From IMG/VR virus record IMGVR_UViG_3300032318_002198: a stretch of 64,000 nt of DNA; one strand, given 5' to 3'. Shown in pieces: positions 45,095 through 63,086 of the stretch. This DNA comes from a virus (Duplodnaviria; Heunggongvirae; Uroviricota; Caudoviricetes). Numbering within the stretch: the stretch's first letter is position 1; the number at the start of each line of letters is the position of its first letter. The notes under the pieces are model-generated. The model had not been told where the DNA came from. It ran no database searches and saw only the letters and a program-made list of their open reading frames with translations. The position numbers were made by a program, and so were the translations under genes.

Positions 45095-45129
45095 GGGGGA
45101 TAGGGACGCTGGGCGTTAACTGGTCTTGA
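45095..45129 (+). pseudogene. 5' half of tRNA-Ser(TGA), broken after the anticodon
   Basis: GGGGGATAGGGACGCTGGGCGTTAACTGGTCTTGA parallels 45741-45775. Confidence 0.85.
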
Positions 45130-45157
45130 CTTGTATAAATACAAGTAGGAGAAATAA

Positions 45158-45739
45158 ATGTATACTTGTAAATATTGTGGTAGAATTACAGAATCAGTAA
45201 ATTCAAATAGTAATCATCAGATTAGGTGTTCTTCAAATTCTGAAAGGTCTGTACAGAGGTCTGCAACCGGAAGACCTCTTGGTACTAAGGTCCTATCGTT
45301 AGTTGGAAAAAAATGGGGTGCAGCAATCAATGGTCATACTATCGAAACTAAACAGCGTTTATCAGTGATTGCAAAAGAACGGAATCTTGGAGGTTATGTA
45401 CAAGGGTCCGGAAGAGGCAAAAAGGGTTGGTACAAAGGATTCTTTTGTGATAGTAGTTGGGAACTTGCTTACGTTGTTTACTGTTTAGAACACAATATAG
45501 ACATTAAACGAAATACAGAGAAGCGACAATATATCTGGCAAGGAGTAGTTAAAAACTACCTACCAGATTTTATAGTTGAAGGAACTTTAACAGAAGTTAA
45601 AGGATATAAGACAGAACAATGGTTGGCAAAGTTAAAAGCAAATCCGGATGTTCGAGTTTTATACGAAAAAGACTTAGAACCTGTACTTGAATATGTTAAA
45701 GGCAAGTACGGAAAAGACTTCATAAATCTTTACGAATAA
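45158..45739 (+). CDS. PD-(D/E)XK (TnsA-like) homing endonuclease
   Basis: Zn-finger CKYC; DSSWEL...YLPDF...EVKGY. Confidence 0.75.
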   Translation: MYTCKYCGRITESVNSNSNHQIRCSSNSERSVQRSATGRPLGTKVLSLVGKKWGAAINGHTIETKQRLSVIAKERNLGGYVQGSGRGKKGWYKGFFCDSSWELAYVVYCLEHNIDIKRNTEKRQYIWQGVVKNYLPDFIVEGTLTEVKGYKTEQWLAKLKANPDVRVLYEKDLEPVLEYVKGKYGKDFINLYE

Positions 45740-45740
45740 C

Positions 45741-45827
45741 GGGGGATAGGGGGCTTGGAGCCTAACTGGTCTTGAAAACCAGCCCACTTAGGGATAGGTG
45801 ATTGTTCGATTCAATTATCCTCCGCCA
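45741..45827 (+). tRNA. tRNA-Ser(TGA)
   Basis: CTGGT-CTTGAAA-ACCAG, long variable arm, GCCA. Confidence 0.88.
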
Positions 45828-45886
45828 AATACTTTGACTTTACTGTTTAAGATAAGCATAATTATATTATACATATAGGAAAAATT

Positions 45887-46438
45887 ATGCTTGAAAATAA
45901 ACACAGTAAATTAATGAAAGAAGTAGTATGTAAATTCCATCCAGAATTTGTTAAAAGTGCCGATCTAAGAGATTATGGTACAAGGTACCCGGAAATTTTT
46001 AATATCGAACGTCTTGTAGAAGAAAGCCTAGCAGCAACTGGAGGCTATAATTTTGTTGACGAAGCTGGTAGAGATTTTGACGATACTGACAATAGCGATA
46101 GCAAAACAACCACTGTCGTGAACAATGACAAAGAGGGTTCAAGCAAAGTCTTCATTGTTAGCAATGTACAAACAAAGATAGGAAGCCTGAGAATTACATG
46201 CTTTAATCCTTTTAGTGATAAGGTAGATTACTTTTATGTACCGTCAGATCAGCGTGTTGTGCTGCAAGAAAATGATGGCAGTAAATACAGAGAACAGACA
46301 GGACATTGCAAGAGAATTAGAACGGTTTGGAGTGAGAAAACTGATTACTACAATAAGTTAGAAAACTTCAGAGTCGGAGATTTTGTTACTCTAGCAACAA
46401 GTAAAGATAAACAGAATATTGACACTCACCACGAATAA
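45887..46438 (+). CDS. hypothetical protein with own sigma70-like promoter
   Basis: ORF; TTGACT...CATAAT upstream. Confidence 0.65.
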   Translation: MLENKHSKLMKEVVCKFHPEFVKSADLRDYGTRYPEIFNIERLVEESLAATGGYNFVDEAGRDFDDTDNSDSKTTTVVNNDKEGSSKVFIVSNVQTKIGSLRITCFNPFSDKVDYFYVPSDQRVVLQENDGSKYREQTGHCKRIRTVWSEKTDYYNKLENFRVGDFVTLATSKDKQNIDTHHE

Positions 46439-46453
46439 ATATATAATATATAT

Positions 46454-46566
46454 TCGACCGTGAGTGGAATTGGCAGACCTCCGAAATTCCTATTATAGGG
46501 ATAAGGGACGGGATACACGACTTAGTCAAAGTATCTTTGTAGGTTCGAAACCTACCGGTCGGACCC
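46454..46566 (+). tRNA. tRNA-Leu-like RNA with aberrant enlarged anticodon arm (no readable anticodon)
   Basis: TCGACCG/CGGTCGG, GGAATTGGCAGAC D-loop, GTAGG-TTCGAAA-CCTAC T-arm, long variable arm. Confidence 0.5.
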
Positions 46567-46593
46567 ATTTAGATCGATAAGTAAATATATATT

Positions 46594-46683
46594 GGAACGG
46601 TCCCATAATGGTATTGGAGAGGATTGCTAATCCTTCGAGTTACGAAAGTAGCTTTCTGAGTTCGAGTCTCAGTCGTTCCGCCA
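46594..46683 (+). tRNA. tRNA-Ser(GCT)
   Basis: GAGGA-TTGCTAA-TCCTT, long variable arm, GCCA. Confidence 0.9.
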
Positions 46684-46691
46684 AACAATTT

Positions 46692-46722
46692 GCGGGTATG
46701 ATGTAAAGGTAACCTGAAACCT
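46692..46722 (+). pseudogene. 5' half of split tRNA-Gly
   Basis: GCGGGTA acceptor strand pairs with TACCCGC at 47262-47268. Confidence 0.85.
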
Positions 46723-46759
46723 ACGGTAAAGTATAAATACTAGTAGGAGATAGGTTACC

Positions 46760-47152
46760 ATGAAAACATATAACTGCGGACATTGCGGAATAGAATGTAA
46801 TTGGGCATATCAAGGCAACAATAAGTTTTGTAGTGTTCGATGTGCTCAAACATTTAGATCTTTAGAGCATAAGAAAAAATTCTTTTCTGGATTGTTAGAA
46901 AAACGAATAGATAGACCAACTGCTAGAAAATATCTAGCAGAGGCAAGAGGTTATAAGTGTGAGGTATGTAGCGTAAGTGATTGGCAAGGCAAGCCTATTA
47001 CTTTACACGTTGATCGTATAAACGGAGATCCGTCAAACGATCGCCCAGATAATTTAAGATTGATCTGCCCTAACTGTCACAGTCAAACCGAATTTCTTGG
47101 TGGTGCTAATAAAGGTAGAGGACGCGGTTCATTAGGAATCGCAAAGTATTAA
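46760..47152 (+). CDS. HNH endonuclease
   Basis: CEVC...LHVDRINGDPSND...NLRLICPNCHSQT; Arg at the usual first His position. Confidence 0.85.
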   Translation: MKTYNCGHCGIECNWAYQGNNKFCSVRCAQTFRSLEHKKKFFSGLLEKRIDRPTARKYLAEARGYKCEVCSVSDWQGKPITLHVDRINGDPSNDRPDNLRLICPNCHSQTEFLGGANKGRGRGSLGIAKY

Positions 47153-47154
47153 AT

Positions 47155-47230
47155 GCGGCTGTAGCTCAGTTGGTAGAGTACTTGCTTGCCAAGCAAGACG
47201 TCACGAGTTCGAACCTCGTTAGCCGCTCCA
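47155..47230 (+). tRNA. tRNA-Gly(GCC)
   Basis: CTTGC-TTGCCAA-GCAAG, TCCA. Confidence 0.95.
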
Positions 47231-47232
47231 AA

Positions 47233-47272
47233 CAAGGTGGGAGGAGGATTCACATTCTCCTTACCCGCTCCA
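47233..47272 (+). pseudogene. 3' half of split tRNA-Gly
   Basis: CAAGGT...T-arm-like GGAGGA/TTCTCC, TACCCGC-TCCA. Confidence 0.8.
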
Positions 47273-47278
47273 AATAAT

Positions 47279-47352
47279 GTCTCTCAAGCATTAAAGTGAT
47301 GTATCAGTCTCCAAAACTGAAGAACGCGGGGCGGTACCGTGGAGAGATGCCA
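47279..47352 (+). tRNA. tRNA-Trp(CCA)
   Basis: TCAGT-CTCCAAA-ACTGA, GCCA. Confidence 0.88.
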
Positions 47353-47368
47353 AAATTATAAATAGAAG

Positions 47369-47845
47369 ATGCGTATCAACGAAATATATTCACCTACTGT
47401 AGTATCCAAGTCAAAAATCCCAAATGCTGGGAATGGTCTGTTTGCAACGGAAAATATTCCAGCAGGAACATTGTTTGTTATAAACCCAATTATCACTATT
47501 AGTGAAAGTGATTGGAATAAGATTAAAGATACAGTTTTTGTAAAAAGAATGAGACTCAGTTGGACAAACAATGAAAAAGTTTTACCTGTTGGAAACATCG
47601 AGTATAAACTTTCTCCTGAAGATATTCCAGTATTTAGGTCAACTGATAGATTCAAAAATGGCGTATTTGTTAGTCCATTTTTACTTGTAAATCATAGTGA
47701 TGATCCAAATAGTGAACAAGTTATCGATGTTGCTCATAGAATGGTAGGATTAAGAGCCGTTAAGTTTATTGAGCAGGGTGAGGAAATAACAAAACGCTAC
47801 GACGGATTTGTTTCCAAGAAATCAGCATCGTTAGATTTTGATTAA
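47369..47845 (+). CDS. SET-domain lysine methyltransferase
   Basis: SKIPNAGNGLFA, VNHSDDPN, GEEITKRY. Confidence 0.85.
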   Translation: MRINEIYSPTVVSKSKIPNAGNGLFATENIPAGTLFVINPIITISESDWNKIKDTVFVKRMRLSWTNNEKVLPVGNIEYKLSPEDIPVFRSTDRFKNGVFVSPFLLVNHSDDPNSEQVIDVAHRMVGLRAVKFIEQGEEITKRYDGFVSKKSASLDFD

Positions 47846-47894
47846 AATAGATGGGCCAAAGGCTCGAGTCCTCGAAAGGACGCAAAAGTTTTTT

Positions 47895-47958
47895 AGGATG
47901 CTTACAGCAAACTTTATACATCAAACTGATAATTTGAAACGTAAAAAAGCATCCTGTT
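47895..47958 (+). ncRNA. CAGCAA anticodon-stem-loop RNA, copy 2 (loop CT-GAT-AA)
   Basis: Matches copy 1 except the anticodon triplet and one linker T. Confidence 0.7.
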
Positions 47959-47968
47959 GTATTTCTGT

Positions 47969-48043
47969 TGGGGGTAAATCGATTGGAGCAGATACTACTC
48001 TTTGAAAGTAGGTGACCAGGATCGTAACCTGGACCCCTAGCCC
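47969..48043 (+). tRNA. tRNA-Gln(TTG), ends GCCC
   Basis: CTACT-CTTTGAA-AGTAG. Confidence 0.82.
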
Positions 48044-48047
48044 GATA

Positions 48048-48914
48048 TTATTTAGAAATTAAATTTTCTACTTGAGATTTTATAAAATCTACTTCGCCAT
48101 AAAAAAGTGTGTTATTTTTAGAAATAGCATTTAATTTTTCTTGTGAAATTTTTATCTGATAAGAATTTTTTGGATCAAGATATACATTGTATTTTGTTAA
48201 ATAAAAATCCGGAAAATAGCGACGAAGTTTTCCGTTAGAATCAAACCATATAATATGTTTGGGTCTAACCCATTGTATTTGATGTGTGTCTAACCATTTT
48301 GCTATTTCTAATTCCCAGGAAGATTCTAATTTTAAAATCTCATTATTATGCAAATATTCGATAACAATCTTTCTATATGTTGAATTTTTTCTTTGACATT
48401 CAGGAGAACAAGTTTTTCTTAAAGTGTTTGCCCAAAACCAATTAGAACAACAAGCACAATAATTTCCGTATATTTTTGTGTAAGGACCATCTGCTCTAAA
48501 ATAGTTTCTTTGAGTTGATTTAACTTTCTTGATTTTAATAGGTTTAGGATCAATCCCTAATGTTTTAAAAAGAGTTAACCTTTGTTTTTCATAAACAGCA
48601 TAATTTCTATTTTTGTTATTAAAAGATGCATTGCAACTTCTACTACAAAACTTATTTTGCTTTTTATCATACGGCAACTGGACATTACAATTTTTACAAA
48701 GAGAACTATTTTTTAAATAATTTTCAATATTTTTTTCTAATACTTTTTTATTTTTAATTTTGTTATTATTTCTTGCATAATTATTTAAAGCAATAGTGCC
48801 TTTTTTCATATTTTTGATTTGTTCTTCATTGCCGTGAGAATGTAAGAAATGAGAAAAAATTCCTTTACTAGTTGTAAGTTTTTGACAGCAGATGCAGGAT
48901 GTAGGGTAAGTCAT
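48048..48914 (-). CDS. PD-(D/E)XK (TnsA-like) homing endonuclease, antisense
   Basis: Several Zn-finger CxxC motifs; LESSWEL...YFPDFYL...YLDPK. Confidence 0.75.
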   Translation of the reverse strand: MTYPTSCICCQKLTTSKGIFSHFLHSHGNEEQIKNMKKGTIALNNYARNNNKIKNKKVLEKNIENYLKNSSLCKNCNVQLPYDKKQNKFCSRSCNASFNNKNRNYAVYEKQRLTLFKTLGIDPKPIKIKKVKSTQRNYFRADGPYTKIYGNYCACCSNWFWANTLRKTCSPECQRKNSTYRKIVIEYLHNNEILKLESSWELEIAKWLDTHQIQWVRPKHIIWFDSNGKLRRYFPDFYLTKYNVYLDPKNSYQIKISQEKLNAISKNNTLFYGEVDFIKSQVENLISK

Positions 48915-48951
48915 AATATAATTAATGTTTATTAATATTTATCGTTTTAAT

Positions 48952-48975
48952 GTTCGATCCCTTCACCCTCTGCCA
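48952..48975 (+). pseudogene. orphan tRNA 3' fragment (T-loop plus acceptor strand)
   Basis: GTTCGATCCCTTC-ACCCTCT-GCCA. Confidence 0.7.
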
Positions 48976-48981
48976 AACAAT

Positions 48982-49058
48982 GTCCCGTTCGTCTAGATGG
49001 CTTAGGACCCCCGCCTTTCACGCGGACAACACCGGTTCGAATCCGGTACGGGATGCCA
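48982..49058 (+). tRNA. tRNA-Glu(TTC)
   Basis: CCGC-CTTTCAC-GCGG, GCCA. Confidence 0.92.
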
Positions 49059-49064
49059 ATTTTT

Positions 49065-49127
49065 AGGATGCTTCCAGCAAATTATGCAATTGCCTTCTAA
49101 GCAAACCAAGCAAAAAAGCATCCTGTT
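49065..49127 (+). ncRNA. CAGCAA anticodon-stem-loop RNA, copy 3 (loop CT-TCT-AA)
   Basis: AGGATGCT/AGCATCCT, TCCAGCAA, TTGC/GCAA hairpin. Confidence 0.65.
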
Positions 49128-49136
49128 TTATAATAT

Positions 49137-49212
49137 ACCCGCGTAACTCAGCGATTAGAGTAATCGGTTGATAACCGATAAGTCGTTGGTTTGAATCCAA
49201 CCGTGGGTACCA
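49137..49212 (+). tRNA. tRNA-Ile(GAT)
   Basis: ATCGG-TTGATAA-CCGAT, ACCA. Confidence 0.9.
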
Positions 49213-49234
49213 AGTTTTATCCCACTATAGCTCC

Positions 49235-49486
49235 AATTCAAAACAAAGAAGATTTTGCCCTGAACATAGACCAAAAAGTATTGCCCCAAAGACAACAATG
49301 TCAAAAGGTAGTCCGTCTGCGCTAAAGTTAGCTGCATATTGTAAAGCAAGAACAACAGAAGAACATCCGCAGTACGGAAAGCGGTGGATAAATGACGGAA
49401 CGACAAACAAAATGATACTAAAAGACCAAGTTGATGTATTCCTTGGCAATGGATGGAATAAAGGAAAAATACCCCGACTAAGCTAA
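49235..49486 (+). pseudogene. C-terminal remnant of a homing endonuclease running into tRNA-Phe
   Basis: HPQYGKRWINDGTTNKMI...GWNKGK matches the C-termini of the 44108 and 11259 endonucleases. Confidence 0.65.
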
Positions 49487-49548
49487 CCTGGTGGAAGCAT
49501 GTGCCTGAAGAGCACGGGGGCTTGGATCGTAACCAAGAGTCGGGACCA
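49473..49548 (+). tRNA. tRNA-Phe(GAA)
   Basis: TGTGC-CTGAAGA-GCACG, ACCA. Confidence 0.85.
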
Positions 49549-49554
49549 TATATT

Positions 49555-49629
49555 AGGACTATGGCGTAGAGGTAGCGCAGCGGACTTTTAATCCGTTAGG
49601 CCCGGGTTCGATCCCCGGTGGTCCTACCA
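49555..49629 (+). tRNA. tRNA-Lys(TTT)
   Basis: GCGGA-CTTTTAA-TCCGT, ACCA. Confidence 0.92.
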
Positions 49630-49647
49630 TATATAATAAATAAAGTT

Positions 49648-50106
49648 ATGAGAGTACGTGAATTTATTGTTGAATTAGCAGACAAGCCTGCTCAATTTGA
49701 ATGGGCATGTCGAACACCTGATGTATGTGTAGCAGAATCGCCGGAGTTGAATTTAACTTTATATATCAACAGGGGTATAAGTCGTGAGCAAAAAGACAAT
49801 GCGATATTTATAGATTTTACTGTAAACGATGAACACAAACTAACCGGCAAAGGTAATGCTATACAAATACTATCAACAGTGTTAGCTATGATGAGTGCAA
49901 TATTACCTAAATTTATAAAAAGAACCGATGATTTTGTCACGTTTGCTGCTGAAAAATCTGAGCACAGTAGAGTAAGTTTATATAGTAGAGCAGTTCCAAA
50001 AATTACAAGTATATTAAAAACAATAGATTATGCTTGGAAATATTATCCAACATATGAACCCAACAGTGGACTACAAAAATACACTTGGGAACGAGAGATG
50101 GGTTAA
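49648..50106 (+). CDS. hypothetical late protein, MRxREF family
   Basis: MRVREFIVE start after TAAATA. Confidence 0.65.
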   Translation: MRVREFIVELADKPAQFEWACRTPDVCVAESPELNLTLYINRGISREQKDNAIFIDFTVNDEHKLTGKGNAIQILSTVLAMMSAILPKFIKRTDDFVTFAAEKSEHSRVSLYSRAVPKITSILKTIDYAWKYYPTYEPNSGLQKYTWEREMG

Positions 50107-50114
50107 GACCTACC

Positions 50115-50193
50115 ATATAAAAACACATTCTAACTAATAAGGGTTGTAAACCTGGGTTAGCTAACAGCTAGCACCCTGAGTGTGTTTCTATAT
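50115..50193 (+). ncRNA. CACATT/AGTGTG stem RNA family, copy 4
   Basis: ATATAAAAACACATT...AGTGTGTTTCTATAT. Confidence 0.6.
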
Positions 50194-50270
50194 GGTCAAG
50201 TATCTTAAGAGGAAGTAGAGCCTCCCTCATAAGGAGGAATGTGGAGCTTCGAGTGCTCTCTTGACCACCA
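50194..50270 (+). tRNA. tRNA-Met(CAT), elongator type
   Basis: CCTCC-CTCATAA-GGAGG, ACCA. Confidence 0.8.
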
Positions 50271-50279
50271 ATCAAATAT

Positions 50280-50356: not shown

Positions 50357-50399
50357 AGACTGTTTAGGTGTGGCCTTAGTGTACTGTTGTGATAATAGG

Positions 50400-50543: not shown

Positions 50544-50665
50544 GCCGCTGTAGTGTAATGGTTAGCACCTTAAGAAGGCTATCCTGTTTTAGGATACATA
50601 CAGCAAAATTTTTCAATTCCTCTGTTAAAGGAAGAGACTGGGTTCGAATCCCAGCAGCGGCGCCA
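50544..50665 (+). tRNA. tRNA-Asn(GTT) with 47-nt insertion between D-arm and anticodon arm
   Basis: GCCGCTG/CAGCGGC, TTCCT-CTGTTAA-AGGAA; insert 50569-50615 contains ATCCTGTT-TT-AGGATACATACAGCAA. Confidence 0.75.
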
Positions 50666-50672
50666 AACATTT

Positions 50673-50776
50673 AGGATGATTTCAGCAAACAACTTATCGT
50701 CGCCAAAATCTGACGAGCCGACCCGTTTGGGGGTGTGTCGTGGGTTCGAGTCCCGGCTTAGACACAGCATCCTGTT
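50673..50776 (+). ncRNA. CAGCAA RNA family, long copy containing a T-arm
   Basis: AGGATG/CATCCT-GTT, TTCAGCAA, internal GGG-TTCGAGT-CCC. Confidence 0.6.
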
Positions 50777-50779
50777 AAT

Positions 50780-53197: not shown

Positions 53198-53480
53198 TGC
53201 GTGGGAAGCTTAAGTGGTTATAAGCACTGGTCTCATTCTTAAGAGTGCATCAGATGTAGAAATACGCTGTATGAATGGTGTCAAATTCGGTGAAACCTAA
53301 AGTAGAAATACTATGGCAATGCCGAGCCAAGCCTCAGTAGAAATACTGTTGAAGGTGTAGAGACTAGACGGCACCCCCCTAAGGTAGAAATACTACGGAG
53401 AAGGCATAGTCCAAGGAGTAAGGAAACTTACACAAACTTGAAACCAGAGACAGCGGGTTCAAATCCCGCACCACGCACCA
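53198..53480 (+). tRNA. tRNA-CAT (probably Ile2) split by a group I intron; exons 53198-53236 and 53441-53480
   Basis: Joined exons give TGCGTGG/CCACGCA and CTGGT-CTCATAA-ACCAG. Confidence 0.88.
53237..53440 (+). ncRNA. group I self-splicing intron (IC3-like, 204 nt, no ORF)
   Basis: P1 CAT/GTG with U-G at the splice site; P AAATTCGGTGAA, Q AATGCCGAGCCAAG, R GTAGAGACTAGACGG, S GGCATAGTCC; terminal G; GAAA tetraloops. Confidence 0.9.
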
Positions 53481-53487
53481 ACTAATT

Positions 53488-54114
53488 ATGTCTAAATGGA
53501 ACTACACTGAATCTGTTCCTGACACACTCTACGTTGCCTGTTCTGGTGGTGTAGATAGTGTTGCCGCAGCAGCAATTCTCGGTGAATGGCGTGATGTAAC
53601 TCTGTTGCATTTTAGTCACACTGATCACGCTCATGTTCAAGAACTCGAAACAGTGAGTGAATTGGCATTTCAATTGAAAGTGCCTTTAATCACCAGTTAT
53701 CAAACTCAGGCTCAAACTACAGGGAATAAAGAAGCACAATGGCGCGATGCTAGATATGCGTGGTTTCATAGTTTAGATCTACCGGTAGCAACTGGCCATA
53801 CTCTCGAAGATTGCGTTGAGTGGTATCTAATGACTTGTTTGCGAGGACGTGGGGAGTATATGCCACATCGTAATCGTAATGTGTTTCGTCCATTCTTACT
53901 TACTGAAAAGTATCATTTGTACAAATATTGTAAACATAGAAATTTGACTTGGTGGGAAGATCCTGGAAATTATAGTTCAGAATTTAGCCTACGCAGTCGT
54001 GTTAGACAAAATTTGGTTCCGGCAGCACTTGAGTGTGAGCCAGGATTGAAAAATATGGTCAAGCGTAAATTAGTTGAGAAAATTAGTAGAGATAAAATGC
54101 TAGTTGACAATTAA
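53488..54114 (+). CDS. tilS: tRNA(Ile)-lysidine synthetase (N-terminal catalytic domain only)
   Basis: SGGVDS PP-loop, RDARY, TGHTLED, RPFL, WWEDPGN, RSRVRQ. Confidence 0.88.
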   Translation: MSKWNYTESVPDTLYVACSGGVDSVAAAAILGEWRDVTLLHFSHTDHAHVQELETVSELAFQLKVPLITSYQTQAQTTGNKEAQWRDARYAWFHSLDLPVATGHTLEDCVEWYLMTCLRGRGEYMPHRNRNVFRPFLLTEKYHLYKYCKHRNLTWWEDPGNYSSEFSLRSRVRQNLVPAALECEPGLKNMVKRKLVEKISRDKMLVDN

Positions 54115-54183: not shown

Positions 54184-54275
54184 GCCCCGATGGTGAAATT
54201 TGGTAGACACAAGGGACTTAAAATCCCTCGCTTTCCGAAAGGAGCGTGCCGGTTCGAGTCCGGCTCGGGGCACCA
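54184..54275 (+). tRNA. tRNA-Leu(TAA)
   Basis: AGGGA-CTTAAAA-TCCCT, long variable arm. Confidence 0.95.
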
Positions 54276-54363
54276 TATTTTAGCAGTTCGCCTCGACCTG
54301 CCTGGCCAGCATAAGGAAGAATAAGCACGGATAAGGAATCGGCCCGTGCCTGCTAAAATATGG
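54273..54363 (+). ncRNA. unidentified stem-closed RNA
   Basis: CCATATTTTAGCAG/CTGCTAAAATATGG 14-bp closing stem. Confidence 0.5.
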
Positions 54364-54374
54364 TAAAGACATAA

Positions 54375-54941: not shown

Positions 54942-55019
54942 AGGTACAATATGCGGTAAGCGTATGAAGCGAGAAACTTGGTAAGAGTGTAAGCGACTTG
55001 AAATAACAAGGTGCCTACC

Positions 55020-55115
55020 ATATTTCAGCACATTAACTGGCCACTAGGTAATAGTCAACATGAAGCCGAGCAAGGATGCAGAGTCTCGGATTAAAGACTA
55101 AGTGTTCTGAAATAT
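55020..55115 (+). ncRNA. CACATT/AGTG stem RNA family, copy 5
   Basis: ATATTTCAGCACATT...AAGTGTTCTGAAATAT. Confidence 0.55.
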
Positions 55116-55121
55116 AGTTTT

Positions 55122-55389: not shown

Positions 55390-55474
55390 GCCCTCTTGGC
55401 GGAATTGGTAGACGCACCAGGTTTAGGTCCTGGCGCCGAAAGGTGTGAGAGTTCGAGTCTCTTGGAGGGCACCA
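55390..55474 (+). tRNA. tRNA-Leu(TAG)
   Basis: CCAGG-TTTAGGT-CCTGG, long variable arm. Confidence 0.95.
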
Positions 55475-55564
55475 TATTAAAACACATTGAGTCGCGCTTA
55501 GGCGGGTGGAAGACTGGTGAACTTCCTCTAAACGGAATCCCAACCTACCAGTGTGTTTCAATAT
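55474..55564 (+). ncRNA. CACATT/AGTGTG stem RNA family, copy 6
   Basis: ATATTAAAACACATT...AGTGTGTTTCAATAT. Confidence 0.6.
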
Positions 55565-55640
55565 GGGGATGGGAATGCAAGAGTGTTCACCTGTTTTGCA
55601 AGCAGGAATCAGATCGGGGCGGTACCGATATTCTCCACCA
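55565..55640 (+). tRNA. tRNA-Ala(TGC)
   Basis: CCTGT-TTTGCAA-GCAGG, G3:U70. Confidence 0.82.
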
Positions 55641-55696
55641 TGTGATACTGTTAATCAATAAAAGATAAATACTTTTATACGTATGATTAACAGCAA

Positions 55697-56332
55697 ATGA
55701 ATTATCAAAAAATTTATAACAATCTAATAGAACGTGCTAAAAATAGAGTCATTTTAGGATATTATGAGAAACATCATATTATTCCACGATGTATAGGGGG
55801 TAGCGATGATTCTAGTAATTTAATTAAATTAACTCCAGAAGAGCATTATATTGCTCATCAACTTTTAGTAAAGATTTATCCAAACAATCATGCCTTGGCA
55901 AAAGCAGCAGCAATGATGATTCCTGATAGACCAACAAATAAAATGTACGGGTGGATAAGGAAACGATTTTCTATTGCTAAATCTATTGAACAATCCGGAT
56001 CTGGAAATTCTCAGTTTGGATCAAAATGGGCGCATAATCCTTTAACTAAAGAAAATAAAAAAATTAAAGGAAACTTAGCTGAAGGGTGGATATACGGAAA
56101 GTATAAAGACCCGCTATTAAAAATAGATAAAATGTCTGTTCTAAAAGAAAAAAGAAAAGAAAATAGAAAAAAACAAATTGACATTTATAGAGAATACTAT
56201 AAAATATATAAAGAAGTAGAATTTGATAAATTTATAGAAATAACAGGGTATAAAAATTCTAAACAGAATTTGGTTCAACGTTTTGCTGTTCTGTTAGAAG
56301 AGTTTATACCTCAAAACGGTAAAAAAAGATAA
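55697..56332 (+). CDS. HNH homing endonuclease (paralogue of 5600)
   Basis: EKHHIIPRCIGGSDD..NLIKLTPEEHYIAHQLL; upstream hairpin CTGTTAATCA/TGATTAACAG. Confidence 0.88.
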   Translation: MNYQKIYNNLIERAKNRVILGYYEKHHIIPRCIGGSDDSSNLIKLTPEEHYIAHQLLVKIYPNNHALAKAAAMMIPDRPTNKMYGWIRKRFSIAKSIEQSGSGNSQFGSKWAHNPLTKENKKIKGNLAEGWIYGKYKDPLLKIDKMSVLKEKRKENRKKQIDIYREYYKIYKEVEFDKFIEITGYKNSKQNLVQRFAVLLEEFIPQNGKKR

Positions 56333-56337
56333 TCAAT

Positions 56338-56422
56338 TCCGCGGTACTCAAGTGGTACGAGGCCTGGCTGTTAACCAGAGACGCCGAAAGGCACGTAGGT
56401 TCGATCCCTACCCGCGGAGCCA
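56338..56422 (+). tRNA. tRNA-Asn(GTT) with long variable arm
   Basis: CTGG-CTGTTAA-CCAG; variable hairpin GCC-GAAA-GGC. Confidence 0.85.
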
Positions 56423-57816: not shown

Positions 57817-59207
57817 GAGCTAGAGAATTTTTACTTGAATATAGGAGAGATATAACCGCCAATAATTTCGGTGATGCTCTATTCAAAACCCTAGATAAAA
57901 CTCCGAACCATGCAGTACCGGATGAATTATATTCATTTGGCGTAATTTCCGACATGGCCCTTCGATTTACGAATTACGAACATGATATTAAAAAGGCAGT
58001 CGTCTATTTTTCGTTTGGCAAATGGTATACTATAACCACCGCTGAATCAGCAATGGCGGCATTACAAGAACTAAAACCAAAAGCAATTGATGCTATACTT
58101 TCAATAATCGAAGAAGCAGATCCTACACCGAATAAAATGTACACACAATGGCTTATAAGAATGTGGATAAATGGCAACGGTGATACTTTATTAGAAGACT
58201 TAAATCGCAACCAGATTCTTACTGCATATCATAGAGCCAAATCAAAAAATTTAATTAAGCCAGAAGATAAAGATATTAATAAATTCAAAAATTATCGTGA
58301 CTTTGAAAAAACCATCAGAAGTAAGTATGATATAAACGTCTTATTGGGATTGGAAGCATCAGCATTTGAAAAAGGTAATTATAAGGTTTTATTGGATAAT
58401 GATGATGTAATTGTTGTTCAATTATTGGATTTAAAAGCCAGTGAATATTGGGGTGAAAAATATAATCCCAATAAAGAACGTAGAGCCGAATGGTGTACAT
58501 TACAACCTGATAACTTTAACTACTATACAAACCGAGGTCCACTATATGTAATTAAACCAAAAAAAGAATTGTTCCCTGGCGAAAAATATCAATTCCATCT
58601 TCCATCTGGTCAGTTTATGGACATCTATGACCACCCGGCTAACTTTTACTATATAGTAAATCACAAATATCCAGAACTAAAGGATCTATTTATTAAGCTC
58701 GAACCGGGTTTAACAAATACCATAATGTTTGCAGACGATAATTTAGTGATAGGTATTTGGAAAGGTATAATGGAAATAGCATATGATCAAGCAATTGAGG
58801 ATATCGAACGATTTGAGACTATGGAAAATGAGCGTTGGTACCCACATAAGAATTATAATGAATCAAAAAAAACATTTTTACAAGACATAAAAGAAATAAG
58901 TAATGCAAGTGCTGAATATATAAAAAAACTAACTCTAGAGTATGTTGATCGGTTAAACGAAGAAATGAATGACATAGGGAATTTTTTCGAACAAACAAAC
59001 TTAACTCATTTAGTCAACATTTTGGCAATGACTGTTAAATACGATACGACGCTACTCACCATAGAAGAATTTACTCCATTTGAAGAACTACCTGACTATA
59101 TACAATCTAGCATATTAATAACCAAAGGTCTCCCGCCATCACGAAATAAAAGAATAATTAAAGTCGGTTCGTGGAGAGTAGTAGATGTCGGTAGCCAGAA
59201 CTCATAA
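57813..59207 (+). CDS. hypothetical late protein, MRxREF family, PcfJ-like motif
   Basis: MRAREFLLEY; EWCTL...YYTNRGPLY; paralogue of 14740. Confidence 0.65.
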   Translation: MRAREFLLEYRRDITANNFGDALFKTLDKTPNHAVPDELYSFGVISDMALRFTNYEHDIKKAVVYFSFGKWYTITTAESAMAALQELKPKAIDAILSIIEEADPTPNKMYTQWLIRMWINGNGDTLLEDLNRNQILTAYHRAKSKNLIKPEDKDINKFKNYRDFEKTIRSKYDINVLLGLEASAFEKGNYKVLLDNDDVIVVQLLDLKASEYWGEKYNPNKERRAEWCTLQPDNFNYYTNRGPLYVIKPKKELFPGEKYQFHLPSGQFMDIYDHPANFYYIVNHKYPELKDLFIKLEPGLTNTIMFADDNLVIGIWKGIMEIAYDQAIEDIERFETMENERWYPHKNYNESKKTFLQDIKEISNASAEYIKKLTLEYVDRLNEEMNDIGNFFEQTNLTHLVNILAMTVKYDTTLLTIEEFTPFEELPDYIQSSILITKGLPPSRNKRIIKVGSWRVVDVGSQNS

Positions 59208-59209
59208 AA

Positions 59210-59824
59210 TTAAGGTATTATTTCCCAATTAACACTAGGGTCTAAAGTTTCGCCTTTTTGAGGATATACTTCTAATAGATACATATGTAGTTTTTCAAAA
59301 AAATCTTTATATGGTGGTATAAAATGATTTCTTTGAATTTCTATACTTACATATCCCGGTTGACCGTTGTGCTCTGTAGCAGAGACCAATTGATCTACTA
59401 ACGACTGAAATTCGGTCTCGTTAAAAATTAACGATAATTGTTTCGTTTGTTTAAATATTGTTTTAGCATGTTCTGGAGTAATTTGATCACTCTTCCCCCA
59501 ATATGCTAGTATAGAATTTTTTTGAGGTAAAAACCTTAGATAAAAACCGCCTTCCCAATCAGTATCGATAGTATCATCAACTCGATAACGATCGAGTTCG
59601 GGAGAGGAAAATACATTCGAAGATGGTTTTGAATTATTCGGTTTAGGTGAAGTAATGGCATGAGGTAATGCTTTGCTCAATTTACGATTTGCTATATCTT
59701 TGATACGTTTATCATCTGCTGCTTTTGCAGCCTGTTGTTGAGCTAATTTTTCTCTACGTTCAGCTTCACGACGACGATCACGCTCGCCTTTGCTGATTTC
59801 ATTGATAATTTCTTTTATGTACAT
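59210..59824 (-). CDS. hypothetical late protein, MxIxEI family
   Basis: MYIKEIINE; TAAATA upstream on minus strand. Confidence 0.65.
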   Translation of the reverse strand: MYIKEIINEISKGERDRRREAERREKLAQQQAAKAADDKRIKDIANRKLSKALPHAITSPKPNNSKPSSNVFSSPELDRYRVDDTIDTDWEGGFYLRFLPQKNSILAYWGKSDQITPEHAKTIFKQTKQLSLIFNETEFQSLVDQLVSATEHNGQPGYVSIEIQRNHFIPPYKDFFEKLHMYLLEVYPQKGETLDPSVNWEIIP

Positions 59825-60123
59825 AATAATATATTTATGCCTGACATAATAACAAATACATGTTACACTACTTACATAAATTAAGTTGTTCTTTAAGTAT
59901 TAAGTTTGTAGATAAGAAATGACTTGGTCCACAAACTTAATAAATAAAAACTGTTGACAGCAGAAAATAATTTTGCTACAATATGTACATGTTAAGAAAT
60001 TAACAAAACAGAAAAGTTGTTCGCTGTAAAGAAAACACTTCTGCTAGTTCTGAAAATACACGGTGATGATTATAATCCGTGAGCATGGACCAGTCAATCA
60101 ACGTTCTTTAAAATTGATATAAC

Positions 60124-60216
60124 AATGTTCTTAACATTGTTGAATACATTAAAACAAACCTGATCAGTTTGTCGTAAATATTTTGACATTTATAGTGTAT
60201 TCAACAATGTTAAGAA
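60124..60216 (+). ncRNA. stem-closed RNA related to CACATT family
   Basis: TTCTTAACATTGTTGAATACA/TGTATTCAACAATGTTAAGAA 21-bp stem. Confidence 0.5.
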
Positions 60217-60304
60217 TTCAAGGGGTGCTTAAACTCCTGTAACGTATGGTTCGCCCAGCGTTACAAAGAATAACTGTGGTGACACAGCCAAAGCAGTAGT
60301 CCTC

Positions 60305-60410
60305 CACTATACTAAAGCACAAAAACAGTTCTTCTCTATATAAGTCCTTGTTGCATTAGAGTATTGAGTAATACTACAGAAATTCTGTTGTAGTGTGGTT
60401 TAGTATAGTG
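60305..60410 (+). ncRNA. CACATT/AGTGTG stem RNA family, copy 7
   Basis: CACTATACTAAAGCACA...AGTGTGGTTTAGTATAGTG. Confidence 0.55.
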
Positions 60411-60545
60411 AAAATCGAGTGAGGCGATCACATAGAGCAACGATGCATAAGAGATTAAGGTTACGTGATCATACCGTTCTTTCTGGTACGTGCATCTGCC
60501 GTCTGGGACAAACTCGACCCAGTGTTAGTTACGATAACATCAACG

Positions 60546-60618
60546 CTATACTAAAGCACATTGACAGCGCGGTCGTATTCAGTTACGGTGCCAAGCGGGA
60601 TAGTGTGTTTTATTATAG
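60546..60618 (+). ncRNA. CACATT/AGTGTG stem RNA family, copy 8
   Basis: CTATACTAAAGCACATT...AGTGTGTTTTATTATAG. Confidence 0.6.
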
Positions 60619-60722
60619 TGAAAACTATTGACGTTGGAAAGACAACTATGGCTCATGATTTATTCTGTCAACGATACAAGGGCTGGGCTGTTCCTTGTAT
60701 GTCGGACGATACGTAACCGACA

Positions 60723-60795
60723 CCATATCGAAGCGCATTTGGATTGAAGAGATTTTGCGGTTTCCTTGGTTGCTAACAAGTGTGTTTCAATATGG
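60723..60795 (+). ncRNA. CACATT/AGTGTG stem RNA family, copy 9
   Basis: CCATATCGAAGCGCATT...AGTGTGTTTCAATATGG. Confidence 0.6.
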
Positions 60796-60812
60796 TAAAG
60801 AATTTGAAAAGT

Positions 60813-60886
60813 GATGCCATAGCCGAGTGGTTAGGCGGAAGTCTGCAAAACTTTATAGGATGGTTCGATTCCATCTGGCATCTCCA
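60813..60886 (+). tRNA. tRNA-Cys(GCA)
   Basis: GAAGT-CTGCAAA-ACTTT, TCCA. Confidence 0.92.
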
Positions 60887-60889
60887 AGT

Positions 60890-61086
60890 TTTGTTAAGTG
60901 TGTCTCAGATAGGAGGACGCTGTAGGCATACAGTGTAAGATGATAACGGTTCGAGTCCGACAGTACGGCAACTATCATCCAATTGTCATTGTGACGTACC
61001 CTAAGAGTAGCAATACTCATAACCGCACCCGGGATAATTTGCGGAGAATGTAGCCTATGTATGTGGTGGCTTAACACTTAACAAAT
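60890..61086 (+). ncRNA. unidentified ~195-nt structured RNA containing a T-loop motif
   Basis: TTTGTTAAGTGT/ACACTTAACAAA closing stem; GGTTCGAGTCC; GAGTA-GCAA-TACTC. Confidence 0.5.
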
Positions 61087-61106
61087 TTATATTAAGGTGA
61101 AATGAA

Positions 61107-61451
61107 ATGAATTTTAACATTGATCCAAAGTTTTTAACATCGATAACTATCTACAAAGAATATAATAAATTGGAGGATCCAAAAAATCCTACCAAAAATG
61201 ATCTTATTCTTATGATGAAGAATCAACATTATTGGTCAACGTTCTATTCTGAAGATACTCCAGAATTTTCAAAATTAAGATCTGAACTAAAAGAGTTGGG
61301 GTTTATTAAAGTTGAAAATCGTTGGTGGAATGGAGATCAAGTGTTGAAAACATTTTATCTCAATGGTGCTAGGTTTGATAAGGAAGAACAATTTCCATGC
61401 GCGTCAGCAATGAAATATACAATCGAAAGTAAATTCAAGTTCTATAAATAA
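61107..61451 (+). CDS. hypothetical protein
   Basis: ORF with AAGG RBS. Confidence 0.6.
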   Translation: MNFNIDPKFLTSITIYKEYNKLEDPKNPTKNDLILMMKNQHYWSTFYSEDTPEFSKLRSELKELGFIKVENRWWNGDQVLKTFYLNGARFDKEEQFPCASAMKYTIESKFKFYK

Positions 61452-61510
61452 TGAAGCAGGCAGCCGGCTGGTAGTCGGACGAGGAAAATAATTCATAACT
61501 AATATTATGC

Positions 61511-61598
61511 AGCGGAATAGTTTAATCGGCAAAACACGGGGCTCATAACCCCGGGACATCTAATGCAAGTCCTGGTTCGACTCCAGGTTCCGCAACCA
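61511..61598 (+). tRNA. initiator tRNA-fMet(CAT) with enlarged variable region
   Basis: 1:72 mismatch, CGGGG-CTCATAA-CCCCG (3 G:C pairs). Confidence 0.85.
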
Positions 61599-61615
61599 AA
61601 TAAAGAAAGCTATAT

Positions 61616-61828
61616 ATGAAAATTCTCGAAAACACTAAAAAGTTAATTTCAGATAATGGTTCTTATAAAGTATATGCTGAATTATGTGAAATGGATAATG
61701 AGTCCAATACAAATTGTCTCAAATTCAAAACAGTATATAGTGATGCAACAGATCCTACATACGAACAAACTAAGTTTGAAATGTTTTTGAACAAAGATCA
61801 GTTGCAAAGACTAAAAGAATTGTTGTAA
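61616..61828 (+). CDS. hypothetical protein
   Basis: ORF track. Confidence 0.55.
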   Translation: MKILENTKKLISDNGSYKVYAELCEMDNESNTNCLKFKTVYSDATDPTYEQTKFEMFLNKDQLQRLKELL

Positions 61829-61855
61829 AATAGTTATACTAACTAAAGAGGATAT

Positions 61856-61987
61856 ATGGCAAAACTAGCAAATGATCGAAAAAAGGTTGTAAAACGTACA
61901 TGTCAAGGTGGTACACAACCAAAAACATCAAGTATGAATAAAACGCAAAAGCGTAGTTTCAAAGCATATCGCGGTCAAGGAAGATAA
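61856..61987 (+). CDS. small basic protein ending YRGQGR
   Basis: GAGGA RBS; MAKLANDRKKVVKRTCQGG...FKAYRGQGR*. Confidence 0.65.
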   Translation: MAKLANDRKKVVKRTCQGGTQPKTSSMNKTQKRSFKAYRGQGR

Positions 61988-61991
61988 TATT

Positions 61992-62210
61992 GTGGCTGTT
62001 AAATCATTAACTAATAATATCGACTATGAAAAATGCGCTGAGAACATTGGCAATAGATTTGAAATGGTTCTAGTTGCTACTCATCGTGCTCGTGAATTGA
62101 AAAAAGGATATGCTAAAAATGTTGGTACACCTAATGGAAATATTGTAACTGCATTACAAGAAATTCAAGAAGGGCATATTGGTAGAGAATACCTGAAGAA
62201 AATCAAATAA
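61992..62210 (+). CDS. rpoZ: RNA polymerase omega subunit
   Basis: IGNRFEMVLVATHRAREL...VTALQEIQEG. Confidence 0.88.
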   Translation: MAVKSLTNNIDYEKCAENIGNRFEMVLVATHRARELKKGYAKNVGTPNGNIVTALQEIQEGHIGREYLKKIK

Positions 62211-62268
62211 ATAAAAACAACAACGTTGTTGACATAGAACAAAAATATCAATATAATAAAAGGAATAT

Positions 62269-62442
62269 ATGATTAAACCAACGAGTAGTTACAAGATGAG
62301 TAAACAGGTTAAGACGATTCTTAATCGATATAGTGATCCGCATCTTCGTGGCGAAATGAAGCGCGGGTGGATTCAAGCAGAGATTGAGGCGGCTATTCGA
62401 CCCAAGGCGGATAAAAAGAATCGTGAACAAGGAGATAATTAA
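62269..62442 (+). CDS. small hypothetical protein (57 aa)
   Basis: TTGACA/TATAAT promoter and AAGGA RBS; MIKPTSSYKMSKQVK... Confidence 0.6.
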   Translation: MIKPTSSYKMSKQVKTILNRYSDPHLRGEMKRGWIQAEIEAAIRPKADKKNREQGDN

Positions 62443-62449
62443 AGAATAA

Positions 62450-62483
62450 GCCCCGTTAGTTCTAGTGGTAAAACATCGGTTTT
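62450..62483 (+). pseudogene. 5' half of tRNA (Thr-like), broken in the anticodon loop
   Basis: GCCCCGT-TA-GTTCTAGTGGTAAAAC-A-TCGGT-TTT. Confidence 0.75.
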
Positions 62484-62590
62484 TAAATTTTTGTATAAAT
62501 AAAATAAAAGATTTAAAAATGGCATGCCGAAAAAAAATTGAATGCGTCTCTTGCAGGAAGCAAATTACAAAAAATAATATCAATAAAGAA
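62484..62590 (+). pseudogene. decayed homing-endonuclease 5' end
   Basis: TATAAATA at 62494; ATG 62524 MPKKIECVSCRKQITKNNINK Zn-finger start. Confidence 0.55.
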
Positions 62591-62596
62591 TATATT

Positions 62597-62670
62597 GCCA
62601 CACTCGTATAATGGTATTACGACTGATTTGTAATCAGTTTACGCGGGTCCGATTCCTGCGTGTGGCACCA
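62597..62670 (+). tRNA. tRNA-Thr(TGT)
   Basis: ACTGA-TTTGTAA-TCAGT, ACCA. Confidence 0.92.
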
Positions 62671-62675
62671 AATTT

Positions 62676-62734
62676 AGGATCCATGCAGCAAATTAAAAAA
62701 TCAAATTGCAACTTTGAAAAAATCGGATCCTGTT
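62676..62734 (+). ncRNA. CAGCAA anticodon-stem-loop RNA (loop TT-GCA-AC)
   Basis: AGGATCC/GGATCCT compensated stem, GCAGCAA, TCAAA/TTTGA hairpin. Confidence 0.65.
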
Positions 62735-62934
62735 ATATACCCCGTGTTATATTTTTCACGTTAGAAAAAGTAGGTTGTGTACAAACCATATTGTACAGAG
62801 TGCGTAGGATCTACTTCAGCAGCCCACTAAACATGGGCATAGCGGAAATATCCTAGGGCAGAACTTAACTGTCCAGATGGAAAAAAGTAGGACGGAACCT
62901 TAAACCCAGTTTAGGGCTTGTGGTAGAGTAGCGA

Positions 62935-62958
62935 GCGGCGTTAGTTCAGTTGGTAGAA
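62935..62958 (+). pseudogene. 5' fragment of split tRNA (Gly-like)
   Basis: GCGGCGT-TAGTTCAGTTGGTAGAA pairs with ACGCTGC at 63078-63084. Confidence 0.75.
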
Positions 62959-62960
62959 GT

Positions 62961-63034
62961 GCATCTGTAGTTTAATGGTAAAATAGCGGATTTCCAATCC
63001 TCGGTCGAGAGTTCGATTCTCTCCAGATGCTCCA
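62961..63034 (+). tRNA. tRNA-Gly(TCC)
   Basis: GGA-TTTCCAA-TCC, TCCA. Confidence 0.92.
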
Positions 63035-63060
63035 ATCAATTCCATTCTTTAATTTTGTCT

Positions 63061-63086
63061 ATCGGTTCGAGCCCGATACGCTGCTC
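63061..63086 (+). pseudogene. 3' fragment of split tRNA (U73, Gly-like)
   Basis: ATCGG-TTCGAGC-CCGAT-ACGCTGC-TC. Confidence 0.75.

Follow-up and report, generated by a model that had tools for sequence, protein, structure and literature searches.

The 64,000-nucleotide (nt) window of the virus record IMGVR_UViG_3300032318_002198 (Caudoviricetes) that we analyse here, and to whose numbering all positions refer, carries a cluster of transfer RNA (tRNA) genes in which several genes are broken, with an endonuclease gene and an intact tRNA of the same isotype found at the break. We interpret these arrangements as free-standing homing endonuclease cassettes that probably land in tRNA genes and offset the damage they do with a spare part instead of an intron. 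Comparison with related contigs demonstrates the insertions themselves, an empty site, a conserved junction, a replacement consisting of half a tRNA or a whole one, and the spread of the arrangement over unrelated phage contigs. A first-pass annotation made from the letters of the window had described the order of broken tRNA, endonuclease and intact tRNA at six places; the pattern is real, and of the six cases those at tRNA-Ser, tRNA-Gly(GCC), tRNA-Gln and tRNA-Thr gained outside support (Table 1).

The cluster extends from 43.6 to 63.2 kb and holds 29 tRNAs called by ARAGORN, on the plus strand throughout, to which Rfam adds a 119-nt tRNA with an insert (50544-50662); many further orphan tRNA pieces are scattered through it. 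Five endonuclease open reading frames (ORFs) lie among the tRNAs. Pfam and PHROG scans bore out the positions given for them earlier, and the matches, together with a PD...ExK motif, agree with the families that had been named: HNH, PD-(D/E)XK and GIY-YIG. No integrase or recombinase domain was found in the 20 ORFs of the region with Pfam, nor in the subset also scanned with PHROGs, and the endonuclease-bearing inserts (45130-45740, 46723-47154 and 48044-48950) match no Rfam intron family at E values up to 1. The earlier description of these arrangements as free of integrases and introns therefore stands, the single group I intron recognised by Rfam (53224-53433) lying elsewhere in the cluster and containing no ORF. 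A further instance of the pattern at a transfer-messenger RNA (tmRNA) could not be confirmed, as neither ARAGORN nor Rfam finds a tmRNA in the window.

An empty site and the tRNA-Ser(UGA) cassette

Loci for comparison were fetched from IMG/VR, 53 of them with relatives of the Ser enzyme and 10 with relatives of the HNH enzyme at tRNA-Gly (both designated below by L numbers), while no close DNA relative turned up in the cultured-phage collection, which yielded distant protein homologues alone. The most informative contig, L239, is a metagenome contig of 3988 nt that was retrieved with a 42-nt pattern taken from the tRNA-like gene at 47275, which is conserved. Its identity to the window is 94-96% across the greater part of 44.9-50.7 kb (~84% around 48.95-49.64 kb), and it contains neither the Ser element nor the Gln endonuclease nor the Phe fragment and relic ORF.

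In L239 there is a single, uninterrupted tRNA-Ser(UGA). Its two halves match the resident halves in the window at 35/35 and 52/52 positions, and the window therefore contains a 646-nt insertion between nt 36 and 37 of the tRNA. Empty-site alleles, named by the first-pass annotation as a means of checking its proposal, are thus represented by a close relative with exact Ser junctions. That the endonuclease would bring with it a replacement tRNA of the same isotype was correct at this site in that a replacement is present, but it consists of a 35-nt 5' half fused to the resident 3' half and not of a whole tRNA. The new half agrees with the resident one at 27/35 positions, and all eight changes fall in four D-stem pairs, each altered on both sides so that pairing is compensated; on this pattern of substitution, the D-stem looks recoded and not drifted. 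The difference is confined to the D-stem, the anticodon stem-loop being the same in replacement and target, and resistance to cleavage therefore cannot lie in the anticodon region here, contrary to what had been suggested.

The tRNA-Gly(GCC) cassette

At tRNA-Gly(GCC) nothing is duplicated; a whole foreign tRNA is nested between the two halves of the old gene, in the order that had been described, and both halves match intact tRNA-Gly(GCC) genes elsewhere. Positions 46692-46716 align to nt 1-25 of the intact genes of L059 and L004, and 47254-47272 to nt 56-74 of that of L004 (94.7%). The acceptor strands of the two halves (46692-46698 and the corresponding part of 47236-47272) pair at 7/7 positions, and the part that is missing is the anticodon loop. 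The old gene has decayed; when its halves were joined, ARAGORN accepted no junction as a tRNA. Its D-arm has become the stem of a hairpin upstream of the HNH gene that is predicted to be stable (-23.2 kcal/mol, z -3.8) and that covaries across seven loci.

In L239 the same spot holds another HNH gene (161 aa, L239 1253-1738), which overlaps the first bases of a tRNA-Ser(GCT) unlike that of the window, and the tRNA-Gly(GCC) that comes next is also a different one. The exchange between the two contigs takes in everything from Ser(GCT) through the old 3' piece of Gly. One spot thus carries different endonuclease-tRNA blocks in two phages. The 5' fragment of the window is found again in L054, which has the Ser(GCT) gene, the Gly fragment and the HNH gene in common with the window at 84% DNA identity. 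We also considered L224, whose SET protein is 80% identical to that of the window, as a candidate empty Gly site; it carries a different remnant there, and the contig has no match to 61-63.7 kb of the window.

The architecture in other phages

The arrangement recurs in many foreign loci. In most loci with a Ser-type enzyme a tRNA-Ser(UGA) begins 0-13 nt after the endonuclease gene, while the upstream tRNA neighbour varies, and the Ser(UGA) anticodon-loop motif lies at the right distance past the stop codon in 14/29 distinct loci, against 0.1 expected. In 16/28 distinct loci the promoter is immediately preceded by a tRNA piece whose last bases are exactly CTT(T)GA, against an average of 2.3 and at most 9 in 1000 shuffles, and by eye some eight further loci have degenerate pieces of this kind. 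The anticodon loop, part of the region proposed earlier as the target of the endonuclease, holds an insertion point that is conserved in many foreign loci. In L017 an enzyme of the same family is found at a tRNA-Gln, whose anticodon loop also contains TTGA. In four loci (L001, L003, L015 and L052) the endonuclease and a complete new tRNA-Ser are still flanked by the two halves of the old tRNA, whose acceptor strands are complementary; the endonuclease of L052 is reduced to its last 27 codons.

For the HNH gene, all eight close relatives have a tRNA-Gly(GCC) 4-13 nt downstream. A 5' tRNA-Gly piece precedes the gene in 4/7 aligned loci (the window, L054, L058 and L056), always of another allele class than the intact tRNA, and the fragment in L058 is of the type of the intact tRNA-Gly of the window; L057 and L059 have no Gly fragment, yet the hairpin is kept. 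Alleles are thus seen shuffled among loci, in line with the tRNA turnover between phages that had been predicted.

Among the distant homologues, that of Escherichia phage PhaxI (L254, 135400-136210) is annotated as an endonuclease and overlaps the start of a tRNA-Met; upstream of it stand a 5' tRNA piece (acceptor and D-arm) and a hairpin over the start codon. Since PhaxI is a cultured Kuttervirus, the architecture is not confined to uncultured phages. The homologous gene of Stenotrophomonas phage Bhz51 abuts a tRNA-His, and the range of the architecture as a whole extends from uncultured freshwater-type contigs to Kuttervirus and Lak megaphages.

Not every search was equally sensitive to these fragments. 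Hidden Markov models (HMMs) of tRNA halves built from window tRNAs gave weak scores on the fragments, although the model for the tRNA-Ser 5' half hit 7/39 upstream regions and 0/195 shuffles. A comparison of each upstream region with its own downstream tRNA overlooked the fragments because they belong to other alleles, and comparisons of motifs and alleles were more informative than generic tRNA-half HMMs.

Table 1. Positions of the broken tRNAs, endonuclease genes and replacement tRNAs in the window
Feature	Position	Strand	Match or remark
GIY-YIG (seg-like) free-standing endonuclease gene; TATAAATA at 44082	44108-44758	+	phrog_314 homing endonuclease, 3.5e-48; Pfam GIY-YIG weak
Resident 5' half (nt 1-36) of tRNA-Ser(UGA), ending right after the anticodon	45095-45129	+	35/35 identical to L239 396-430; upstream flank common to both
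Inserted Ser element, 646 nt	45130-45775	+	Not in L239
TATAAATA of the Ser element	45134-45141	+	
PD-(D/E)XK endonuclease ORF, 193 aa	45158-45739	+	
Replacement 5' half of tRNA-Ser	45741-45775	+	
Intact chimeric tRNA-Ser(UGA), new 5' half and resident 3' half	45741-45827	+	ARAGORN tRNA-Ser(tga)
Resident 3' half of tRNA-Ser(UGA)	45776-45827	+	52/52 identical to L239 431-482
5' part of broken tRNA-Gly(GCC): acceptor, D-arm, 5' strand of anticodon stem	46692-46722	+	nt 1-24 or 1-25 of intact tRNA-Gly(GCC) of L059 / L004, 92-96%
Hairpin burying the ribosome-binding site (TATAAATA 46732-46739 in its loop), then HNH endonuclease ORF 46760-47152, 130 aa	46708-47152	+	HNH PHROG and Pfam
Intact replacement tRNA-Gly(GCC), allele class different from the broken copy	47155-47230	+	ARAGORN; Rfam 66.7 bits
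3' part of broken tRNA-Gly(GCC): 3' strand of anticodon stem, decayed T-arm, acceptor strand, CCA	47236-47272	+	
Replacement tRNA-Gln(UUG)	47968-48043	+	ARAGORN; start base is that of the resident gene of L239, first 8 nt common
288-aa endonuclease ORF 48048-48914, with promoter-like GATAAATA motif at 48943-48936	48048-48943	-	
3' remnant (T-loop to CCA) of resident tRNA-Gln(UUG)	48951-48975	+	23/24 identical to tRNA-Gln of L052
Decayed 5' half of tRNA-Phe, ending at anticodon CCTGAA, to ~49262	49216-49262	+	
62-codon relic ORF, running into intact tRNA-Phe (49473-49548)	49298-49486	+	
Possible further case: ACTGTTAA (the Asn anticodon loop sequence) as 5' arm of a hairpin around the GATAAATA motif; HNH ORF 55697-56332	55647-56422	+	
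5' part (nt 1-34) of broken tRNA-Thr(UGU), break inside the anticodon	62450-62483	+	Identical to starts of intact tRNA-Thr(UGU), IMG/VR
TATAAATA 62494-62501; 33-codon CxxC ORF 62510-62611; intact tRNA-Thr(UGU) of another allele 62597-62670	62484-62670	+	
Outer decayed tRNA (acceptor and D-arm 62935-62960, remainder 63035-63086), with intact tRNA-Gly(UCC) 62961-63034 nested after the D-arm	62935-63086	+	

Further cases in the window

The Gln case is real, being supported by matches to L052 and L239, but its geometry is not the one first described, as the endonuclease is inverted and the break lies in the T-loop. The one tRNA-Gln of L239 shares its start and upstream flank with the intact tRNA-Gln of the window and its 3' end and downstream flank with the piece at 48951-48975. 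In the window, nt 9 to ~51 of the resident gene have given way to a different tRNA-Gln allele and the endonuclease on the minus strand. In the direction of that strand, the order of elements is that of the Ser site: old piece, GATAAATA, endonuclease and complete tRNA.

At tRNA-Thr(UGU) the broken tRNA is confirmed by IMG/VR, where the 23-nt core of the fragment is present in 12 contigs and its full 34 nt in 8 of them, but the endonuclease relic that had been proposed there is not demonstrable. The Phe case stands in so far as L239 has its Ile and Phe tRNAs 7 nt apart, without the Phe fragment or the relic ORF; the likeness of the relic to the C-terminus of the GIY-YIG protein of the window is weak (E 0.001). 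For the site at 62935, a tRNA is indeed nested inside an outer one: with the inner tRNA-Gly(UCC) removed, ARAGORN calls the outer tRNA in 62/476 junction variants. The acceptor of the latter pairs at 7/7 positions with one G-T, and the anticodon arm has degenerated; searches with the outer tRNA (62935-63086) brought up no intact homologous allele, and its isotype, first given as Gly, is uncertain and may be Gly or Glu. The points of insertion or breakage are thus between nt 36 and 37 at Ser and after nt 34 at Thr, while at Gly the loop is replaced; Gln, with its T-loop, is the exception.

A possible further case involves the HNH ORF at 55697 (211 aa; phrog_655), 5 nt past whose stop codon a tRNA-Asn(GUU) starts. 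The hairpin upstream of this gene has a z score of -3.9, and the ACTGTTAA...TTAACAGT hairpin recurs in four distinct foreign loci (six with near-duplicate contigs), each with a tRNA-Asn or tRNA-Thr abutting. The tRNA-Asn(GUU) itself (56338-56422, 85 nt) has a long variable arm, as does one tRNA(CAU) (61511-61598, 88 nt), an uncommon feature in either isotype. Beside the GIY-YIG gene we recognised no tRNA fragment, and the split-tRNA pattern is absent there; relatives of this gene are found in tRNA clusters beside many different isotypes.

The enzymes and their putative expression signals

An alignment of 14 homologues of the 193-aa Ser protein shows an invariant N-terminal C-C-H-C finger, an invariant D-S-S-x-E block, and P136-D137...E146-x-K148. 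The profile of this alignment matches T7 endonuclease I across the PD...ExK motif (E 0.005), and an AlphaFold model (mean confidence score, pLDDT, 80) gave weak Foldseek matches (best E 0.025), every one of which is a restriction-fold nuclease: Bax1, TnsA, RecU and I-Bth0305I. The PD-(D/E)XK label is thereby supported at the level of motif and fold class. The 288-aa enzyme at tRNA-Gln has its nuclease core in common with the Ser enzyme family (hhalign E 9.6e-6) and matches the endonuclease family phrog_15137, while IMG/VR yielded no relatives of it.

The motif TATAAATA lies 8-19 nt 5' of the plus-strand endonuclease ORFs at 44108, 45158 and 46760, and 8 nt 5' of the 33-codon ORF at Thr, a placement that is suggestive of a T4-type late promoter. 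In the Gly HNH gene and the HNH gene at 55697 the promoter motif is in the loop of a stable hairpin that would pair over the ribosome-binding site (RBS) or the start codon and whose stem covaries between loci. A late promoter combined with an RBS-hiding hairpin is a known form of control in I-TevI, segB and mobE of T4 (PMC2988022), and in the case of I-TevI the enzyme also acts as repressor of its late promoter, by way of an operator similar to the homing site (PMC2988022).

A proposed mechanism and its alternatives

We propose that the unit consists of a T4-type late promoter, usually placed in a hairpin that would hide the RBS, an endonuclease gene (PD-(D/E)XK for Ser and Gln, HNH for Gly), and a replacement tRNA directly past the stop codon. 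During mixed infection the enzyme would cut the uninterrupted tRNA gene of a cassette-free phage near the anticodon loop, and the break would be repaired from the donor, the left homology arm being supplied by the old 5' tRNA piece that precedes the endonuclease gene. Where donor and recipient tRNAs are alike, the right crossover could fall inside the tRNA and yield a chimera such as the tRNA-Ser of the window; where they differ, it would fall beyond the tRNA, and the endonuclease with an entire new tRNA would then lie between the two old halves, an arrangement found at Gly and in L001, L003, L015 and L052. In either case the 5' half of the recipient would be stranded upstream and the phage would retain a working tRNA of the same isotype. 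Self-protection at Ser might reside in the recoded D-stem or in a recognition site that spans both sides of the insertion, and the stranded 5' piece may also have come to serve as an operator or a hairpin arm. Cleavage of the uninterrupted allele, repair-driven copying and self-protection by the four recoded D-stem pairs are thus steps that we infer from the architecture.

Several points weigh against this interpretation. At Ser the reconstituted anticodon stem-loop is that of the presumed target, so that self-protection would be unexplained unless recognition reaches the D-stem. The true pre-insertion allele is not seen at the Gly site in L239, and since L239 has different HNH, Ser(GCT) and Gly(GCC) alleles there, the Gly gene was probably imported already split. 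The HNH gene of L054 is 91% identical to that of the window and the fragment is common to both, but L054 has another tRNA-Gly, which implies that the enzyme and its tRNA are not strictly co-inherited. No resemblance of the 33-codon ORF at Thr to the Ser enzyme family or any PHROG could be detected, and Gly(UCC) shows no sign of an endonuclease. Finally, the number of TATAAATA motifs in the window is at the level of chance (14 against 14.2 expected), and it is therefore only their placement before ORFs that is informative.

Homing cassettes are not the only conceivable source of such arrangements. Endonuclease-induced breaks or replication slippage might have produced tandem copies of tRNA and endonuclease, with fragments left by partial deletion and subsequent decay and with nothing imported or targeted. 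Such events do occur in related settings, as SegB drives tandem amplification of a tRNA-Tyr and segB unit in T6 with microhomology at the junction (PMC13096335), and the window itself contains many other orphan tRNA pieces and, with the ORF at 49618-50106, an insertion flanked by an 11-nt direct repeat. Local duplication is nonetheless improbable as the origin of the cassettes: the new Ser 5' half is no copy of the resident one, all four D-stem pairs having been swapped while the surroundings are 94-96% identical to L239; the old halves are nested around the new tRNA and not arranged in tandem (Gly and the four foreign Ser loci); and fragments and intact tRNAs belong to different allele classes.

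A second possibility accepts the insertions and holds that the stranded 5' pieces persist because they are useful in themselves, as an autorepression operator, as the 5' arm of a hairpin, or as small RNAs resembling tRNA halves. The piece next to the promoter is kept in most loci, even at ~20 nt, the operator of I-TevI offers a precedent in its likeness to the homing site (PMC2988022), the old D-arm forms the hairpin stem at Gly, and the anticodon-loop-like ACTGTTAA is a hairpin arm in all relatives of the HNH gene at 55697. These fragments vary greatly in length and sequence except for their last 7-8 nt, however, and the hairpin persists in L057 and L059, which have no Gly fragment. We consider this account unlikely as a replacement for homing cassettes, with which it is compatible and not exclusive. 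That the halves are instead joined as RNA into functional split tRNAs, by an unrecognised intron or by trans-splicing, is highly improbable in spite of an insertion point at the usual position of tRNA introns and a true group I intron in a tRNA(CAU) of the same cluster (53224-53433), because no endonuclease-bearing insert matches an intron family at E values up to 1, a complete tRNA of the same isotype follows each insert, the Ser 5' half has no separate 3' half to join, and at Gly the old T-arm is decayed and all joined constructs are rejected by ARAGORN.

Beyond the individual cassettes, we tentatively suggest, at a confidence a little short of calling it probable, that they belong to a widespread, self-compensating class of homing elements, characterised by intron-free homing into the anticodon loop, by the use of tRNA halves as portable homology arms between unrelated phages and by D-stem recoding as self-protection, and that this class may be a main driver of tRNA allele turnover in phage tRNA clusters.

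Other features of the cluster

A number of further features of the cluster were recorded. One tRNA(CAU) carries a 210-nt, ORF-less group I intron just past its anticodon (Rfam 62.3 bits), and a PP-loop/TilS-like gene begins 8 nt past the CCA of this tRNA; the two (53198-54114) look like a self-contained pair for decoding AUA. The tRNA-like gene at 47275-47346 has a CCA (Trp) anticodon loop, a 7-bp acceptor and an unusual T-loop, GGCGGTA, and is not called by ARAGORN; it is conserved in L224 and L239 and may be the otherwise missing tRNA-Trp. A 113-nt tRNA-like unit at 46456-46568 combines a canonical T-arm and acceptor with a long internal hairpin, which differs between the window and L239 while the remainder is identical. 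Relative to L239, the window also has an insertion (49637-50108) with a 162-aa ORF (49618-50106), flanked by the 11-nt direct repeat CCTACCATATA, which corresponds to the 3' end of tRNA-Lys(UUU) followed by TATA.

Two families of repeated elements occur in the cluster. The first is a module made up of AGGATnnnn-CAGCAAA, a short hairpin resembling an anticodon stem-loop (of Ile, Arg, Cys and others) and nnnnATCCTGTT, found at 43820-43890, 47893-47960, 49063-49131, 50575-50625, 50670-50775 and 62675-62735; one copy lies in a tRNA-Asn between the D-arm and the anticodon arm, and the module is also present in L017, L224 and L239. The second is a family of long hairpins, closed by CCATAT..CACATT / AGTGTGTTTC..ATATGG, that span the distance from the CCA of one tRNA to the start of the next (44853-44940, 50113-50195, 54272-54365, 55017-55118, 55474-55567, 60549-60620 and 60725-60797). 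Far from the main cluster, a tRNA with anticodon CTA (12425-12499), labelled Pyl by ARAGORN, would be an amber suppressor.

Significance and comparison with known systems

If the interpretation is correct, a spare part would constitute a third way for a homing endonuclease to inhabit an essential gene, besides introns and inteins. Conservation of tRNA sequences extends to very different phages, and such cassettes would not depend on common neighbouring genes for their spread; their activity could explain why phage tRNA clusters are mosaic and rich in endonuclease genes and tRNA debris. For annotation, orphan tRNA halves beside small nuclease genes would be read as homing scars and not as pseudogenes of obscure origin. 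The Ser alleles of the L239 type and the window type, which are four D-stem base pairs apart, make both target and immunity definable, and the turnover of tRNAs may have selective consequences, as the supply of tRNA matters for the escape of phages from tRNA-cutting defences.

Prophages and genomic islands that reside in tRNA genes are inserted by a tyrosine integrase, with the 3' part of the tRNA duplicated and the gene thereby kept intact. The cassettes resemble these elements in being mobile DNA in a tRNA gene accompanied by a partial tRNA copy, and differ from them in that no integrase domain was found, that at Ser 35 nt of the 5' half are duplicated, and that movement presumably proceeds by break repair.

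An intron in the anticodon loop is the residence of another endonuclease, I-Ssp6803I. This PD-(D/E)XK homing endonuclease is encoded in a group I intron of the Synechocystis tRNA-fMet (PMC1995217; PMC3239194) and offers a parallel for a restriction-fold homing endonuclease housed in a tRNA gene (PMC1995217; PMC3239194). There, however, the tRNA is restored by RNA self-splicing, whereas in the window it is restored at the level of DNA, by a spare half or a whole tRNA and without an intron; the enzymes have no detectable sequence similarity outside the catalytic motif. In the fractured genes and split-intein loci described by Dassa et al. in 2009, an intron-less endonuclease gene with its own control elements likewise breaks a conserved phage gene (PMC2677866), but there the pieces are functional and are rejoined via split inteins or assembled at the protein level (PMC2677866), whereas the old tRNA pieces in the window are dead and a replacement is supplied.

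A further counterpart is SegB of T4, an endonuclease encoded by a free-standing gene of a tRNA cluster, which cleaves tRNA genes and drives the inheritance of these genes (PMC2330249). As in the seg and mob genes, those in the window are free-standing in a phage tRNA cluster and have a putative late promoter and an RBS hairpin (PMC2330249; PMC2988022); they encode nucleases of homing endonuclease families, lie in no intron or intein, and show presence and absence relative to L239. SegB cuts the tRNA genes of phages that lack it, with the result that its own gene and the flanking tRNAs are preferentially inherited (PMC2330249). It differs from the cassettes in its location between tRNA genes and in its recognition of a T-loop motif of many tRNAs, whereas the window genes lie inside one specific tRNA at a fixed point of the anticodon loop. 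The cassettes, moreover, restore the gene by a duplicated 5' half or a whole tRNA, and their enzymes are of the PD-(D/E)XK and HNH families while SegB is a GIY-YIG enzyme. In a search of the full-text literature we found no account of intron-less endonuclease genes that split tRNA genes and bring a replacement. The nearest known kind is thus that of the T4-type free-standing homing endonucleases such as SegB, to which the split tRNA and its replacement add a new feature.

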